Under the pieces are notes generated by a model, which saw only the letters and a program-made list of their open reading frames with translations, ran no database searches and was not told the DNA's origin. A stretch of DNA of 64,000 nt from a phage. Shown piece after piece: positions 11,274 to 31,363 of this stretch; position 1 is the first letter of the stretch; every line of letters starts with the position of its first letter. The DNA lies in NCBI GenBank assembly GCA_017686895.1, contig GCA_017686895.1_4521.1. One strand, 5' to 3'. A program made the translations under genes and the position numbers.

Positions 11274-11551
11274 AAACATATAGTGAATTTTTATCAGAAT
11301 CTATTCTTAACGAAGCTACTGACACATTTGCAACTAAGCTAGGTGCAGCTTTGGTTGAAGCTGAAAGTCTATTAGCACGTATTTCTGAACTTGCTAGTAA
11401 GATAGATATTCGCAAATTTGAACGTACCAGCGATATCGCTAAGCTTGAAGCCTTGTTGCGTATGTGCGATAAACCAGAGGAAATCGCTAAGAACGGCTCG
11501 CTGATGAAACAACGTCTTGAAAAATATATTTCAGGCGCTTCAGAAAAATAG
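11270..11551 (+). CDS. internal head protein (IP-like) with capsid-targeting leader
   Basis: Starts [10 protein letters not shown]; ATG overlaps lysozyme stop. Confidence 0.6.
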
Positions 11552-11609
11552 TGTTTACTTCCTCCAAGGGTTTTGATACTATACATTCATCAACTACTTG
11601 GAGGAAATT

Positions 11610-12023
11610 ATGACTCGTATCAATTTAACACTTGTTTCTGAACTGTCCGACCAACATCTTATGGCTGAGTATCGTGAATTACCACGCGTATTTGGTGCAG
11701 TCCGTAAACATGTTCAAAACGGTAAACGTGTAAAGGATTTTAAAATCTCTCCAACATTTATCTTAGGCACAGGTCACGTAACATTCTTTTACGACAAACT
11801 CGAATTTTTACGTTTACGTCAAATCGAGCTAATCGCTGAATGTTTGAAACGTGGTTTCAAAATCAAGGACACGACAGTCCAGGATATTTCCGACATCCCT
11901 GCCGAATTTCGTAATAATTATGTCCCGTCCGAAGCGTCCATTGCGATAAGTCAAGCACGCTTAGATGAAAAAATTGCTCAACGTCCGACTTGGTACAAAT
12001 ACTATGGTAAATCAATTTACTAA
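11610..12023 (+). CDS. denV: endonuclease V (pyrimidine-dimer DNA glycosylase)
   Basis: [34 protein letters not shown]... matches T4 EndoV along its length. Confidence 0.95.
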
Positions 12024-12030
12024 GGAAAAA

Positions 12031-12360
12031 ATGAAAACATATCAAGAGTTTATCACTGAAGTTACATTATCTGCGGAACAGAAAGCTGCTATCGAAGAAA
12101 GTAAAAATCCCAAAGTAACATATAAAGTAAATAGTAAAGGCGTTTTTGATGGCTTGGTTCAAGACCCTGAATTGAAAAAAGCTCTTTCTAAAACTAATGC
12201 GTACTTTGCTCCTAAATTTAACACAGCAGGTGTACTTATTGGATTGGATGTATTCAACTCTAAAGGTGTTCTATCTAATGCCTTTGGCTATGCCGCTAAC
12301 AAAATTACCAAAGCCGCATGGGAATCCAATACCAAACAAGCTCAAAAGCCTAGAGTATAA
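12031..12360 (+). CDS. internal head protein (IP-like) with capsid-targeting leader
   Basis: Starts MKTYQEFITE, the same leader as T4 IPII/IPIII. Confidence 0.6.
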   Translation: MKTYQEFITEVTLSAEQKAAIEESKNPKVTYKVNSKGVFDGLVQDPELKKALSKTNAYFAPKFNTAGVLIGLDVFNSKGVLSNAFGYAANKITKAAWESNTKQAQKPRV

Positions 12361-12532
12361 TTCTTGTCTAATAAAGGGAAACGCAACCTCTCCTTATGAA
12401 CGTCGAGTCCTCTGAGTGATGTACCTTTTCCAACCTGTAATAAGGTCGAGCGCAATGCGGTAATGGGTTTACATAGCGAGTCGAAGGACCTAACATGTGC
12501 CACGGAATGGCCCAAACCTTAAGAGAAATAAT

Positions 12533-13072
12533 ATGAGAACATTTTTAACTGGACCTTATCTATCCCTGATGAATGCTTTTACACACCATTCTGATGCTAG
12601 AGTAGAAGAAATTTGTAAGAACGGTTATATCCCACCATTTGAAGACGTACTCAAGCAGTACTGTACACTTCGTTTAGACGGCGGCAGACAATCAGGTAAA
12701 TCAATTGCTGTGACTAACTTTGCTGCTAATTGGCTGTATGATGGTGGAACAGTTATTGTTCTTTCTAATACTTCAGCTTATGCTAAAATTTCTGCTGGTA
12801 ACATTGAAAAAGAATTTTCTCGTTATTCTAGCGATGATATTCGATTCCGTTTGTTTACTGATTCTGTTCGTAGTTTTATTGGCAATGAAGGTTATAAATT
12901 CCGTGGATTAACGCTTTCTCGTATTCTGTATATAATTGACGAGCCTATTAAAGCTCCTGATATGGATAAGATTTACGACATCCATATTAAAACAGTCCAA
13001 CACTGTTGCAAAAGCAAATATTGCATCGGCGGTAATGCTCGTCCTCAATTTTTTGTGATTGGAATGCAATGA
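12533..13072 (+). CDS. hypothetical P-loop protein
   Basis: Walker A-like DGGRQSGKS; start at ATG 12533 after AGAGAAATAAT. Confidence 0.45.
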   Translation: MRTFLTGPYLSLMNAFTHHSDARVEEICKNGYIPPFEDVLKQYCTLRLDGGRQSGKSIAVTNFAANWLYDGGTVIVLSNTSAYAKISAGNIEKEFSRYSSDDIRFRLFTDSVRSFIGNEGYKFRGLTLSRILYIIDEPIKAPDMDKIYDIHIKTVQHCCKSKYCIGGNARPQFFVIGMQ

Positions 13073-13377
13073 TGACCGATATTGAAGTTTTTGAGTATTG
13101 TTATAACAGCCCAGTATGCAATAAAAGGGCCCTTGTAGAAAATTACGAGATTTACCATTTTAAACCTAAACGATATCGTTTGACTAAAGGTCCGTTCGCA
13201 GGGCAGCAAGTTCTTTGTACTGCTCCTAATGCACGGTTGATGACTAGTATTCCGCATTTCAAAATGGAATTTATTGATGGGCCATTTAAGGGATTAATCA
13301 CTCAAAGTTTAATGGCGTTTAATTCCGACCCATTTTTGATTAAAGAACAATCCTGGATAAATTTATTTTCTAATTGA
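13069..13377 (+). CDS. hypothetical protein
   Basis: 102-aa ORF overlapping upstream stop. Confidence 0.45.
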   Translation: MMTDIEVFEYCYNSPVCNKRALVENYEIYHFKPKRYRLTKGPFAGQQVLCTAPNARLMTSIPHFKMEFIDGPFKGLITQSLMAFNSDPFLIKEQSWINLFSN

Positions 13378-13383
13378 GGTTAT

Positions 13384-13746
13384 ATGAAAGCATATCAAAT
13401 TCTTGAAGGCACACACAAAGGCACTATTTATTTTGAAGACGGTACTCAAGCCCGGATTATTGTCTCTAAGACTTTTAAAGAAGACGCTATTGTAGACCCG
13501 GAAATTTTCTACGGTTTGAATGCCCGTGAAATTGAAATTGAACATCAACCTAAAGTTAAAATTGAAGGTGGTCAACACCTGAACGTTAATGTTCTGCGTC
13601 GTGAAACTCTGGAAGATGCAGTTAAGCATCCAGAAAAATATCCGCAGTTGACCATCCGTGTATCCGGTTATGCAGTTCGCTTTAACTCTCTGACTCCGGA
13701 ACAACAGCGCGACGTTATCGCTCGTACCTTTACTGAGAGTCTATAA
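13384..13746 (+). CDS. grcA: autonomous glycyl-radical cofactor (GrcA/YfiD-like)
   Basis: C-terminal ~60 aa ([60 protein letters not shown]) carry the RVSGY glycyl-radical motif and look near-identical to E. coli GrcA as I recall it. Confidence 0.85.
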
Positions 13747-13970
13747 TGGCTAAATTGATTATAGAAGGGTCTGAAGATGTTTTAAAATGTTTTGCCGCCT
13801 GGTTTAGTTGCTCAGGCGAGCAATCATTCATTGAAGCATTTAGAATGGGTGATATTACTGGAAACTATCCGGCAACTGATATCACTGTACGTGGATATGG
13901 TATTAATGAGCCTATCCAATTGGTCGAATATGACCTTGCCACCGATGAGGAAATTCCTTATGTCGATTGA
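13746..13970 (+). CDS. hypothetical protein
   Basis: 74-aa ORF, TAATG overlap start. Confidence 0.4.
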   Translation: MAKLIIEGSEDVLKCFAAWFSCSGEQSFIEAFRMGDITGNYPATDITVRGYGINEPIQLVEYDLATDEEIPYVD

Positions 13971-14226
13971 AGATATTAAAGGCTACAAGCCACATACCGA
14001 CGATAAAATCGGTAAAGTGAACGCTATTAAAGATGCAGAAGTCCGTCTTGGATTGTTGTTTGATGCTCTGATTGAAGAAGCATATATCTTGAAAGAAAAT
14101 GAAACAGAGCAACAAACCAAAGAAGATATGGATGCAGTACAGGCTCTTAAGTATGCTAAGCAACATCTAAAAGAAGCCAGCATGTGGGCCTGTCGTGCAG
14201 TATTTCGACCTGAGGAAAAATACTAA
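13960..14226 (+). CDS. hypothetical protein
   Basis: Internal ATG (MSIEDIKGY...) of track ORF 13792..14226, overlapping upstream stop. Confidence 0.4.
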
Positions 14227-14525
14227 TGGCTCAAATCCTATCAGGCTTTGGAACTCATTATGAAGCATCTAGACGCATAACTGAAAGCAATCCTTTTGGC
14301 CTTGTTCCGAAGCACAAGAAAATTCAAAGCCTTGATGACTTTGAGAACCGCCTATGGGCCCTCTTTAATGAGTACAAGGCATATCTGAAAGAAGACGCTG
14401 ACGATTGTCTTGAAGAAGATGAGATTGCGTATTACGAACAACGCCTTGAACAGCTCAAGAACTTCCATCAGGTTCGTGACGAAGTATCTAAAGCAGTTAA
14501 AAAGTTAATTCCTTTCAAAGAGTAG
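14226..14525 (+). CDS. hypothetical protein
   Basis: 99-aa acidic ORF, TAATG overlap. Confidence 0.45.
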
Positions 14526-14553
14526 TTTACTTCTCCTCTAGTTGTGTTACTAT
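14525..14553 (+). promoter_or_regulatory. early promoter inside a 12-bp perfect palindrome (approximate coordinates)
   Basis: GTTTAC, 17 bp, TGTTACTAT; CTCCTCTAGTTG ... CAACTAGAGGAG inverted repeat whose right arm contains the regB RBS GAGGAG. Confidence 0.55.
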
Positions 14554-14581
14554 AGTCTTGTCAACTAGAGGAGAAATCAAA

Positions 14582-15040
14582 ATGACTATCAATTCGGAAG
14601 TTTTTATCCGCCGTAATAAACTCCGTCGAATCTTTGAAACGGAGTTCCGCAAAATAAATGCCGGTATAAAAGATGCTGCAAAGTCTCTTGGACTACCAGG
14701 CTTTCATATCAAGTATTCTCAACATCTCTTAGATCGTGCCATCCAGAGAGAAATAGATGAGAATTACGTTTTTGAATTATTTCGTAAAGTAAAAAATCAT
14801 GTTAAAGAAGTTGCAGAATTTTTATCAATGCCGGCACGTCCAGATGTTGATGAAGATTTTGTCGAAGGTGTCGAATATCGCCCAGGCCGTTTAGAAATAA
14901 CTGATGGAAATCTTTGGTTAGGACTTACAGTCTGTCGCGAAAATCCAGCATTCAAAATGAAGACTCTTCAATGCAGAATGGCTATTATTAACAGTAAACG
15001 ACTACCAGGAAAAGCTTCTAAAGCAGTGATTAAAATCTAG
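14582..15040 (+). CDS. regB: site-specific endoribonuclease RegB
   Basis: MTINSEVFIRRNKLRR...YSQHLLDRAIQREIDENYVFELF... matches T4 RegB along its length as I recall it. Confidence 0.9.
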   Translation: MTINSEVFIRRNKLRRIFETEFRKINAGIKDAAKSLGLPGFHIKYSQHLLDRAIQREIDENYVFELFRKVKNHVKEVAEFLSMPARPDVDEDFVEGVEYRPGRLEITDGNLWLGLTVCRENPAFKMKTLQCRMAIINSKRLPGKASKAVIKI

Positions 15041-15048
15041 AGGTAAAC

Positions 15049-15591
15049 ATGAGAAAAGCACTACTCGCTGGTCTATTTGCTCTTTCGTTATCAGCACATA
15101 GCTCCGAGCATACTTTTAGTAATGTCCAACTCGATAACTTGAATTATGCTTATCAGTTTGGGGAACAGTTTTCTAAGGACGGAAAATTTAAAACGCATGA
15201 AAATATGCATAAGAAAGGACTTGGATACATAATGGCCGCAATACTATGGCAAGAATCATCCGCAGGTATTAATCTTAAAGATAAGAAAGGTCACCATGCG
15301 TATGGAATGTTCCAAAACTATCTACCAACAATGAGGGCAAGAATTAACCAGCTTGGTTATAATATGACTGATGCCCAAATTAAGAAAATGCTATCTAAGC
15401 GGTCTAATTCAGCAAGATGGGCTTATATCGAATTTTCTTATTGGTTAAATATACATAACGGGGATATAAGAAAAGCTATATCCTCATATAATGCGGGGTG
15501 GAAGACAAGTGCTGGAAGTAAATATGCTTCTGAAGTCCTAGAAAAGGCTAATTACCTTAAATCAAATAAACTACTGGAAATAAAAGAATGA
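15049..15591 (+). CDS. secreted lytic transglycosylase-like protein
   Basis: Signal peptide MRKALLAGLFALSLSAHS; SLT-like ILWQESS and AYGMFQ motifs. Confidence 0.5.
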   Translation: MRKALLAGLFALSLSAHSSEHTFSNVQLDNLNYAYQFGEQFSKDGKFKTHENMHKKGLGYIMAAILWQESSAGINLKDKKGHHAYGMFQNYLPTMRARINQLGYNMTDAQIKKMLSKRSNSARWAYIEFSYWLNIHNGDIRKAISSYNAGWKTSAGSKYASEVLEKANYLKSNKLLEIKE

Positions 15592-28608: not shown

Positions 28609-29082
28609 ATGTTATTATCTGGCAAATTATACAAAGAAGAAAAACAAAAATTTTATGATGCACAGAACGGTAAGTGTCCTATTTGCCACCGTGAATTAGA
28701 CCCTGATGTTCAAGGTAACCATCTTGACCACAACCACGAGTTAAACGGGCCAAAAGCCGGTAGAGTTCGTGGATTACTCTGTAATCTGTGCAACGCAGCA
28801 GAAGGCCAAATGAAGCATAAGTTCAACCGTTCTGGTCTTAAAGGTCAAAACGTTGATTACCTCGAATGGCTTGAAGCTCTTCTTGCTTATTTGAAACAAG
28901 ATTATTCTGATAATAATATCCATCCTAATTTTGTTCCAGACAAAACTAAAGAGTTCTCAAGACTAGGTAAAGAGGAAATGATGGCTGAGATGCTTCAAAG
29001 AGGATTTGAATATACTGAATCTGATACTAAAACACAATTAATAGCTTCATTCAAAAAGCAGCTTAGAAAGAGTTTAAAATGA
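28609..29082 (+). CDS. 49: endonuclease VII (Holliday junction resolvase)
   Basis: GKCPICHRELDPDVQGNHLDHNHELNGPKAGRVRGLLCNLCN ... colinear with T4 gp49, 157 aa. Confidence 0.95.
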   Translation: MLLSGKLYKEEKQKFYDAQNGKCPICHRELDPDVQGNHLDHNHELNGPKAGRVRGLLCNLCNAAEGQMKHKFNRSGLKGQNVDYLEWLEALLAYLKQDYSDNNIHPNFVPDKTKEFSRLGKEEMMAEMLQRGFEYTESDTKTQLIASFKKQLRKSLK

Positions 29083-30896
29083 AAATTGAAAAAGAAATTG
29101 AAGGATTAATTTATAAAACTAATAAAGATCTTTTGAACGAGAATGCTAATAAAGATTCTCGTGTTTTTCCAACTCAACGGGACCTTATGGCTGGTATTGT
29201 GTCTAAGCACATTGCCAAAAATATGGTCCCGTCTTTTATTATGAATGCGCATGAAAGTGGAATTATCCACATGCATGATATTGATTATTCTCCTGCTCTT
29301 CCGTTTACTAATTGTTGTTTAGTCGATTTAAAGGGGATGCTTGAGAACGGATTTAAATTAGGCAATGCTCAAATTGAAACGCCTAAATCGATTGGTGTTG
29401 CTACTGCAATTATGGCACAAATTACTGCACAAGTTGCTTCACATCAGTATGGCGGAACTACATTTGCGAATGTCGATAAAGTTCTTTCTCCTTATGTTAA
29501 ACGTACATACGCTAAACATGTTGAAGATGCAGAAAAATGGCAAATCGCTGATGCGTTGAATTATGCTCAATCCAAAACAGAAAAAGATGTATACGATGCA
29601 TTCCAAGCTTATGAATATGAAGTAAATACTCTCTTTAGTTCAAACGGACAAACGCCTTTTGTAACAATTACATTTGGTACGGGAACCGATTGGACTGAAC
29701 GAATGATTCAGAAAGCAATTCTTAAAAATCGTATTAAAGGTCTCGGTCGTGACGGAATAACTCCTATTTTTCCTAAACTTGTTATGTTTGTTGAAGAAGG
29801 TGTTAATCTTTATAAAGATGATCCAAACTATGATATTAAACAACTTGCGTTAGAATGTGCAAGCAAAAGAATGTATCCTGACATTATTTCGGTTAAGAAT
29901 AATAAAGCTATTACTGGTTCTTCAGTTCCGGTTTCTCCAATGGGCTGCCGTAGTTTCTTGAGCGTATGGAAAGATTCGACTGGTAATGAAATTCTTGATG
30001 GACGTAATAATCTCGGTGTTGTAACACTGAATCTTCCTCGCATCGCATTAGATTCTTATATTGGAACACAGTTCAATGAACAGAAATTTGTTGAATTATT
30101 CAATGAACGAATGGATTTATGTTTTGAAGCTTTGATGTGTAGAATTAGTTCCTTAAAAGGAGTTAAAGCGACTGTTGCTCCTATTCTTTACCAAGAAGGT
30201 GCATTCGGGGTTCGTCTTAAACCTGATGACGATATAATTGAGTTATTTAAAAACGGTAGAAGTTCAGTGTCTTTAGGATACATCGGTATTCATGAATTGA
30301 ATATTCTTGTTGGTCGTGATATTGGACAAGAAATTTTAACTAAAATGAATGCTCATCTTAAACAGTGGACCGAAAGAACTGGATTTGCTTTTAGTTTATA
30401 TTCTACTCCTGCTGAAAACTTGTGTTATCGTTTCTGTAAACTTGATACAGAAAAATATGGAAGCGTAAAAGATGTTACCGATAAAGGCTGGTACACTAAT
30501 AGTTTCCACGTTTCAGTAGAAGAAAATATTACTCCGTTTGAAAAGATTTCTCGTGAAGCGCCATATCATTTCATTGCGACAGGTGGTCACATTTCTTATG
30601 TTGAACTTCCTGATATGAAAAATAACCTAAAAGGTCTTGAGGCCGTGTGGGATTATGCTGCACAACATTTAGATTATTTTGGTGTTAATATGCCAGTAGA
30701 TAAATGTTTTACATGCGGAAGTACTCATGAAATGACTCCTACTGAAAACGGATTTGTTTGTTCAGTTTGTGGAGAAACTGATCCTAAAAAGATGAACACT
30801 ATAAGAAGGACATGCGGTTATTTGGGAAATCCGAACGAACGCGGATTTAATCTCGGTAAAAATAAAGAAATCATGCATAGGGTTAAACACCAATGA
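29079..30896 (+). CDS. nrdD: anaerobic ribonucleoside-triphosphate reductase
   Basis: 605 aa; C-terminal zinc ribbon CFTCGSTHE..CSVCGE and glycyl-radical motif RTCGYLG; uninterrupted, no intron. Confidence 0.95.
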   Translation: MKIEKEIEGLIYKTNKDLLNENANKDSRVFPTQRDLMAGIVSKHIAKNMVPSFIMNAHESGIIHMHDIDYSPALPFTNCCLVDLKGMLENGFKLGNAQIETPKSIGVATAIMAQITAQVASHQYGGTTFANVDKVLSPYVKRTYAKHVEDAEKWQIADALNYAQSKTEKDVYDAFQAYEYEVNTLFSSNGQTPFVTITFGTGTDWTERMIQKAILKNRIKGLGRDGITPIFPKLVMFVEEGVNLYKDDPNYDIKQLALECASKRMYPDIISVKNNKAITGSSVPVSPMGCRSFLSVWKDSTGNEILDGRNNLGVVTLNLPRIALDSYIGTQFNEQKFVELFNERMDLCFEALMCRISSLKGVKATVAPILYQEGAFGVRLKPDDDIIELFKNGRSSVSLGYIGIHELNILVGRDIGQEILTKMNAHLKQWTERTGFAFSLYSTPAENLCYRFCKLDTEKYGSVKDVTDKGWYTNSFHVSVEENITPFEKISREAPYHFIATGGHISYVELPDMKNNLKGLEAVWDYAAQHLDYFGVNMPVDKCFTCGSTHEMTPTENGFVCSVCGETDPKKMNTIRRTCGYLGNPNERGFNLGKNKEIMHRVKHQ

Positions 30897-31363
30897 ATTA
30901 TGATAGATTTTATCCTTGCGATTTTGTTAATGGCCCTGGTTGCAGGGTCGTTCTTTTCGTTACAGGTTGTTTGCATAAATGCGAAGGGTGTTATAATAAA
31001 TCAACATGGAACGCTAGAAATGGTGCTCCATTCACTGGAGAGACACTAGAACAATTAATTGAATGTTTGAATAATGATTATATAGAAGGATTAACTATAA
31101 CCGGAGGAGACCCTCTCTATCCTGATAACCGAGATGTTATTCACTCTGTAGTTCAAACTATTAAAAATCTTTATCCCAATAAAAGCATTTGGTTGTGGAC
31201 AGGATATAAGTTTGAAGATATTAAACAGCTAGAAATGCTTAAATATGTTGATGTTATTATTGATGGGAAGTATGAGAAAAATCTTCCGACCAAAAAGTTG
31301 TGGCGAGGATCAGATAATCAGCGACTTTGGTCAAATACCGATGGGGTGTGGAAACATGATTAA
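30893..31363 (+). CDS. nrdG: anaerobic RNR activating enzyme (radical SAM)
   Basis: CLHKCEGC radical SAM cysteine motif; ATGA overlap with nrdD. Confidence 0.9.
   Translation: MNYDRFYPCDFVNGPGCRVVLFVTGCLHKCEGCYNKSTWNARNGAPFTGETLEQLIECLNNDYIEGLTITGGDPLYPDNRDVIHSVVQTIKNLYPNKSIWLWTGYKFEDIKQLEMLKYVDVIIDGKYEKNLPTKKLWRGSDNQRLWSNTDGVWKHD

Follow-up and report, generated by a model that had tools for sequence, protein, structure and literature searches.

The open reading frame at 13384-13746 of the window (the whole 64,000-nucleotide stretch of phage DNA analysed here) is, with a probability of about 0.9 as judged from sequence comparisons, the Mosigvirus (RB69-type) ortholog of T4 vs.6, whose product Y06I is an autonomous glycyl radical cofactor, and a mosaic with an Escherichia-derived 3' half. 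The gene itself is already known and already annotated. It was conserved in every T4-like genome compared by Nolan et al. 2006 (PMC1524935); in our search of a phage collection at least 80% of it was covered in 829 phage records, and many RefSeq phage records name it 'autonomous glycyl radical cofactor GrcA'.

The vs.6 gene and its protein family

Over its first 25 kb the window has 95-98% identity to RB69-like phages (genus Mosigvirus, T-even), and the annotated regions of RB69, T4 and O157 typing phage 3 show the window's own gene order, denV-vs.8-vs.7-vs.6-vs.5-vs.4-regB-vs.1-vs-tk.4-tk. The T4-type Vs.6 orthologous group is recognised by its place between vs.7 and vs.5, within the early denV-regB region, and by a phage-type N-terminus, the latter common to T4, RB69, Mineola, Slopekvirus and UPEC03; the window copy has both. 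The features of this region, together with two tRNAs, are:

13069-13377, plus strand: vs.7 ortholog, upstream neighbour in the same operon-like run (ORF and synteny; 75.2% nucleotide identity to T4 vs.7)
13376-13379, plus strand: Shine-Dalgarno GAGG with the ATG 4 nt downstream, overlapping the vs.7 TGA stop at 13375-13377 (direct reading)
13384-13746, plus strand: vs.6 or phage grcA, T4 Y06I ortholog, a 120-aa autonomous glycyl radical cofactor (ORF, profile, BLASTP and synteny evidence)
13657-13671, plus strand: RVSGY motif; G95, at 13666-13668, is the counterpart of E. coli GrcA G102, which bears the radical, and of PflB G734 (alignment)
13746-13970, plus strand: vs.5 ortholog, downstream neighbour with overlapping stop and start (ORF and synteny)
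1209-1282: tRNA-Met (CAT), with an annotated counterpart at the corresponding position of RB69 and of O157 typing phage 3
1289-1365: tRNA-Arg (TCT), likewise matching a tRNA annotated at the same place in both phages

The gene runs from an ATG start to a TAA stop through 120 codons. Since its Shine-Dalgarno sequence overlaps the stop of vs.7, and its own stop shares bases with the ATG of the following gene vs.5 (TAATG), vs.6 lies in a tightly packed same-strand run. A scan of 11500-15200 for sigma-70-like sites found 9, fewer than the 11.4 found in shuffles, and gave no usable promoter.

The sequence-only reading had described a GrcA-like glycyl-radical spare part with a C-terminal 60 residues nearly identical to E. 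coli GrcA/YfiD, RVSGY included, and a differing N-terminal half. This description holds in full. Residues E61-L120 are identical to GrcA/YfiD E68-L127 at 60/60 positions, including R92-V-S-G95-Y96, and BLASTP against E. coli GrcA (annotated E. coli chromosome, L001:447-827) returned 74/100 identities (E=7e-53). Pfam Gly_radical (PF01228) was detected on residues 59-101 (E=2e-18). The NCBIfam GrcA equivalog (TIGR04365, IPR011140) scored 159.1 bits over residues 18-120; the curated cutoff of 170, a scoring threshold for bacterial GrcA and no functional criterion, was not reached because the N-terminal half has diverged. In the PDB, the YfiD NMR structure 6owr ranked first (E=2e-42) and PFL next, its residues 696-759 matching Vs.6 residues 57-120 (E=3e-26). 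Vs.6 has the hallmarks of GrcA/YfiD, namely a small stand-alone protein, a C-terminal Gly_radical domain, RVSGY and a homologous N-terminal half.

The N-terminal halves differ, with 15/41 aligned residues identical (37%), yet when compared alone they are still significantly similar (BLASTP E=7e-7). Therefore, the phage gene descends from a full-length grcA captured long ago, and the same homology rules out an origin by joining a host fragment to an unrelated phage peptide. A search of 5426 E. coli genomes with the phage-type 5' half gave no match. This half is conserved across Tequatro-, Mosig-, Jiaoda-, Slopek- and Pseudotevenvirus; its N-terminus is common to these five Straboviridae genera and occurs in a weaker form in T5-like phages. 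By its substitution rates, the N-terminal half is under purifying selection within phages (window vs T4: dN 0.046, dS 0.39, dN/dS about 0.12; window vs Mineola: dN 0.18, dS about 2).

Comparison with the known proteins places the window copy next to T4 Vs.6 (Y06I, NP_049730), which is likewise of 120 aa, has 113/120 residues identical and sits at the same place in the vs.8-vs.7-vs.6-vs.5-vs.4-regB run. The seven substitutions, T4 vs window, are T21I, A35S, I36F, N46H, H54P, K57T and R73H. The mosaic layout is also alike, the E. coli-type 3' half beginning at the identical point; the synonymous drift from E. coli grcA is 7/177 nt in the window copy, mostly GC to AT, as opposed to 3/177 in T4. 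E. coli GrcA/YfiD (P68066; 6owr) resembles the window protein in being a stand-alone protein of ~14 kDa whose radical domain is 100% identical over 60 residues and whose N-terminal half can be aligned (ARxIV.K..F.ED..V...RE..E..P.V). However, the window protein is 7 residues shorter and its first ~20 residues are unrelated, and the gene is set in a lytic phage operon, whereas E. coli grcA lies beside ung. The C-terminal glycyl-radical domain of PflB (residues 696-759), which is the fold segment that the spare part replaces, is shared with the window protein, but 12/59 residues and 44/177 nt differ and PflB is a 760-aa enzyme. Finally, the radical domain of the short GrcA2/GrcA3 proteins (NCBIfam NF008341 and NF038360, about 80 aa) matches that of the window protein at 96-107 bits; these families are without most of the N-terminal half, whereas the window protein has a full-length conserved one.

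PFL or NrdD as the partner of Vs.6

According to Wagner et al. 2001 (Knappe group), as related in PMC8683613, the PFL-activating enzyme puts a glycyl radical on both E. coli YfiD and T4 Y06I, and the two proteins form a complex with PFL cleaved by O2 at G734 and restore its activity; in the same account, they were then the sole two biochemically validated spare-part proteins. Residues 1-60 of YfiD are disordered, yet are required for binding to cleaved PFL and for efficient activation, and the radical is carried by residues 61-127 (PMC8683613). Thus, the ability of GrcA to repair oxygen-damaged pyruvate formate-lyase, which the sequence-only reading had named, is reported for the T4 ortholog itself in the account of Wagner et al. 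given there. PFL rescue by the window allele would be expected by orthology (94% identity to T4 Y06I) and extends a known role rather than proposing a new one.

The following scheme is envisaged. The Vs.6 protein would be made from the early vs-regB gene run, and the host radical-SAM activase PflA would install the radical on G95 within RVSGY. Activated Vs.6 would dock onto host PFL cleaved by O2 at G734 and stand in for the lost C-terminal radical domain, upon which the conversion of pyruvate to acetyl-CoA and formate would resume. Once host gene expression has been shut off by the phage, fermentative energy and the supply of acetyl-CoA could in this way be sustained in a gut host under micro-oxic conditions, and the benefit to the phage would presumably be that PFL is sustained during infection. 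The conserved, phage-specific N-terminal half may alter which form of PFL is recognised, or how.

A different partner is suggested by two further genes of the window:

29079-30896, plus strand: nrdD, anaerobic ribonucleotide reductase (PF13597, 2.5e-171; context only)
30893-31363, plus strand: nrdG, its activase (Fer4_12, 3.5e-49; context only)

NrdD is a glycyl radical enzyme and, like PFL, is cleaved by O2. Vs.6 would then be a spare part for, or a regulator of, the phage NrdD, with its radical installed by the phage NrdG, a reading we regard as very improbable. Both genes are indeed present in the window, as had been noted earlier, but their proximity to vs.6 is loose: they lie downstream of it, beginning after 15.3 kb and more than 30 intervening ORFs, and are not adjacent. 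Elsewhere, in Aeromonas phage Ah1 (MG250483; L092:1297-1680), a vs.6 homolog does lie directly after nrdD-nrdG and before nrdC-nrdH, and a role in nucleotide metabolism was suggested from a shared Pfam domain in an early comparative paper (PMC1524935). However, BLASTP of Vs.6 against the window NrdD found no detectable similarity (best E=6.1), the C-terminal glycyl-radical region of NrdD included. The radical domain of Vs.6 is instead 100% identical to that of GrcA and about 80% identical to the C-terminus of PflB (47/59 residues), so that the sequence points to PFL/PflA and not to NrdD/NrdG. In addition, T4 Y06I works with PFL and PFL-AE in the account of Wagner 2001 given in PMC8683613. For the window phage, a spare part for NrdD is therefore rejected on the missing similarity between the two proteins; in other phages it is a distant prospect given the gene order of Ah1, where the association of vs.6 with nrd genes may be meaningful.

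Two side observations concern these genes. The radical domain of the Ah1 homolog is more diverged, 17/59 residues differing from the window copy. The window nrdD (29079-30896) reads through 605 codons as one continuous ORF, so that the window phage appears to have the intron-less form of a gene that in T4 is interrupted by a group I intron with I-TevIII.

Mosaic structure and direction of transfer

A nucleotide-level comparison with host grcA, which had been proposed as a check on the sequence-only reading, gave a mosaic: synonymous sites are saturated upstream of 13561 and have a dS of 0.18 downstream of it. The gene divides as follows:

13384-13561, plus strand: phage-lineage 5' half, residues 1-59 and the first base of codon 60 (dS 1.38, dN 0.83 vs E. 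coli)
13562-13736, plus strand: Escherichia-derived patch, glycyl-radical domain, from the rest of I60 to T117 (breakpoint test, blastn, NJ)
13737-13746, plus strand: phage-native 3' tail, the third base of the E118 GAG codon followed by AGT CTA TAA, overlapping the vs.5 start codon (nucleotide alignment)

In all of the 5426 complete E. coli genomes, matches to the gene are confined to its 3' part (nt 133-363, 90%), because the mismatch rate falls abruptly within that part. Thus, in a codon alignment with E. coli grcA, there are 97/178 mismatches (about 54%) up to gene nt 178 and 7/182 thereafter. The maximum chi-square breakpoint is at the same nt 178 (window 13561; chi2=112, permutation p<=0.0005); between E. 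coli and Salmonella grcA this test found no breakpoint (p=0.36). With the halves split at G62 (window 13567), slightly off the breakpoint, the window copy differs from E. coli grcA with dS 1.38 and dN 0.83 in the 5' half and dS 0.18 and dN 0 in the 3' half, where T4 and RB69 have dS values of 0.05 and 0.09. For scale, the dS of this 3' segment between E. coli and other bacteria is 1.04 for Salmonella, 0.73 for Klebsiella, 0.36 for Citrobacter amalonaticus and 0.05 for another Escherichia species. The capture from an enterobacterial host that had been called recent is accordingly recent for the 3' half, which falls within Escherichia, but not for the 5' half.

Local searches agree with this division. 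When 12400-14700 was compared with the E. coli grcA locus by blastn, 13562-13751 alone was matched (95.8%, 190 nt) and the flanks had no match. The patch has four synonymous differences from E. coli grcA, at 13590, 13632, 13648 and 13704. Compared with 80 bacterial grcA genes, the 177-nt segment of the window has 7/177 nt differences from E. coli and 20/177 from the closest genus other than Escherichia. At its other end, the last three sense codons, GAG AGT CTA, are common to the RB69, Slopekvirus and Pseudotevenvirus copies and absent from host grcA. Between T4 and the window, the neighbouring genes are 73-86% identical and the vs.6 5' half 89.9%, whereas the 3' half, at 95.7%, is the highest of the region. 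With E. coli grcA as the query, an identity of 95% or more over nt 200-384 was found in 639 phage records, the best of them having 99.5%; among the matches listed, 25/25 begin at E. coli grcA nt 200.

In NJ bootstraps, with 37 taxa, of the 177-nt segment, which is a small evolutionary sample, T4, RB69, the window and IMG/VR T-even-type phages formed a clade with Escherichia grcA in 495/500 replicates at all sites and in 388/500 at third positions only. Inside this clade the order is looser: the phages were monophyletic in 286/500, and they were nearer to E. coli than to Escherichia sp. MOD1 in 275/500, which rests on essentially one site.

Two sources of a host-like 3' half were tried and rejected. 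pflB as the donor differs at 44/177 nt, vs 7 for grcA, and convergence through codon bias fails on Salmonella and Citrobacter grcA, which have equal codon preferences, yet differ at 13-36 sites.

It might also be argued that the whole gene was captured once, long ago, and that purifying selection and shared codon preference, with no recombination, kept its 3' half host-like. An ancient full-length capture did occur, as the homology of the N-terminal halves indicates; furthermore, the radical-domain protein is nearly invariant across Enterobacterales and E. coli grcA uses strongly preferred codons. Nevertheless, we consider a single ancient capture extremely unlikely as the whole explanation. 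At synonymous sites, bacteria with an identical protein segment are 20-36/177 nt from the phage, as against 7 for E. coli and 3 for T4 vs E. coli, and the contrast between the dS values of the two halves of one gene speaks against it as well. Moreover, sister phages with related N-terminal halves (IMG/VR L100-L103, Slopekvirus, Pseudotevenvirus) keep the protein while being 29-42 nt from every host.

The same phages bear on the direction of transfer. If the 3' half of grcA in an Escherichia ancestor had been replaced by a T-even phage copy, the synonymous states specific to the E. coli lineage, some of them A/T-ending, would be common to the phages, as they are. Four lines of evidence make this reverse transfer scarcely credible and together indicate host-to-phage transfer. 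First, the E. coli 3' half is no farther from Citrobacter, Salmonella and Klebsiella (dS 0.36/1.04/0.73) than the 5' half is (0.56/0.79/0.99). Second, the phage-type 5' half is absent from E. coli. Third, the window-specific changes are AT-biased, 6 being GC to AT vs 1 AT to GC, as expected after import into a genome of 37% GC. Fourth, the unpatched phage lineages are remote from all hosts (~30-40 nt), so that E. coli would be an outlier had a phage been the donor, and this is not observed. The preferred reading, that the 3' half was copied from an Escherichia grcA well after Escherichia split from Citrobacter and Salmonella, is supported by these comparisons.

As for the mode of transfer, phage sequence flanks 13562-13736 on both sides, and the segment is therefore an internal patch, as from gene conversion, and not an end capture. 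It was most likely acquired by homeologous recombination. The 5' edge of the patch lies where the invariant part of the protein begins, and may mark the limit up to which phage and host DNA retained enough similarity for recombination.

Of the 16265 matching places in E. coli, six are on plasmid-labelled records. Separately, in five E. coli records the best place is 95-99% identical to the phage gene, vs ~90% for normal grcA; these might be due to short alignments or to T4-like phage sequence within the assemblies.

Radical domains of other phages and their meaning

The comparisons raise the question of whether such replacement recurs. We would give even odds to the proposal that grcA of the current host has replaced the radical-domain half more than once, in separate events, via short-patch homeologous recombination, with the phage N-terminal half kept. 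The sequences point to at least two independent patches with one common 5' edge, one from Escherichia to Tequatrovirus/Mosigvirus and one from a Klebsiella/Pseudocitrobacter-like host to Jiaodavirus. Thus, over the first 165 nt of the segment, T4 has 1 difference from E. coli grcA, and Mineola (Jiaodavirus, a Klebsiella phage) has 9 differences from Pseudocitrobacter grcA and at least 20 from other phage lineages. Mineola also has the Klebsiella/Salmonella-type LLDAVEH where E. coli has LEDAVKH. On this evidence Jiaodavirus looks like a second, independent host-type patch. The T-even patch may stem from one acquisition followed by phage-phage spread or from several acquisitions, given the modest bootstrap for phage monophyly reported above.

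General tracking of the host by all phage copies, however, is unsupported by the Salmonella, Yersinia, Hafnia and remote-lineage comparisons. With Salmonella grcA as the query, no phage was above 83.8%. Yersinia phage fPS-90 (Tequatrovirus-like) is 98.9% identical to E. coli grcA and not of its own host's type, and in the Klebsiella-query search Hafnia phage IsaacDaniel, also Tequatrovirus-like, groups with E. coli phages. In Slopekvirus, Pseudotevenvirus, the MNAYQILNG lineage, T5-like and jumbo phages, the 3' halves are 29-50 nt from every sampled host. A description of host-derived patching of vs.6 was looked for in the full-text literature, with incomplete coverage, and none was found.

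Several further copies were noted along the way. UPEC03 (E. coli; L087:1360-1722) and Slopekvirus KLB3 (Klebsiella; L088:1360-1722) are sister lineages with similar N-terminal halves. Their radical domains differ exactly at the host-distinguishing LEDAVKH/LLDAVEH residues, and nearby synonymous sites are not host-like, at ~30 nt from either host; this pattern could reflect a very short conversion tract or convergent adaptation.

Two annotated genes depart from the usual frame. In Morganella phage vB_Mm5 (PP397179; L089:1063-1716), the GrcA-like protein is annotated with 217 aa, and the usual N-terminus, MYGYQVKTGKHTGTIFI, lies ~88 residues in with no stop before it; the extra N-terminal stretch reflects either fusion to an upstream ORF or an incorrectly called start. 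In Salmonella phage SE24 (T5-like; L090:2815-3183), an in-frame stop falls inside the conserved GGQHLN motif of the GrcA-like gene (GG*HLN), and the annotation splits the gene into two ORFs named 'pyruvate formate-lyase' and 'ribonucleotide reductase subunit'. An intact frame of 127-151 aa is present in about 30 other T5-like IMG/VR contigs, and their N-terminus, KAYQNLKSG, resembles the T4-type MKAYQILEG.

Among IMG/VR contigs, three of jumbo-phage size (L119, L122 and L123; 345-357 kb) encode a GrcA-like protein with a T4-like N-terminal half, MTIKAIQIL.GEHEGTI...ARVIVSKTL.ED, and with 3' halves 38-47 nt from any sampled host. A viral lineage represented by L112-L118 and L120 (33-154 kb) has a more host-like GrcA N-terminal half, SIWLIE.NKARCLVAKEV. 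The grcA genes nearest to its 3' halves are mostly from Pasteurellaceae, chiefly Haemophilus parainfluenzae, at 30-39 differences, and these contigs are possibly phages of Pasteurellaceae. Contig L121 (19 kb) carries a full-length host-type grcA with the N-terminus ITKASNEALLNSFWLLD, 16/177 nt from Yersinia grcA, and seems to be bacterial DNA, or the flank of a prophage, classified as viral.

With the gene and its biochemical function on record from 2001, the window does not present a new kind of system, and the recent patch from Escherichia in the radical domain adds a neat evolutionary detail. The gene is nevertheless a clean worked example of a lytic phage carrying a metabolic repair part for a host enzyme, in which the part that fits the host enzyme and its activase has been refreshed from the host chromosome while the phage N-terminal half was retained under selection. 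It could be used for dating host-to-phage gene flow in T-even phages, and it suggests swaps of N- and C-terminal halves for studying how spare parts recognise damaged PFL. If true, recurrent overwriting would amount to a natural, datable entry of chromosomal DNA into strictly lytic hmC phages.
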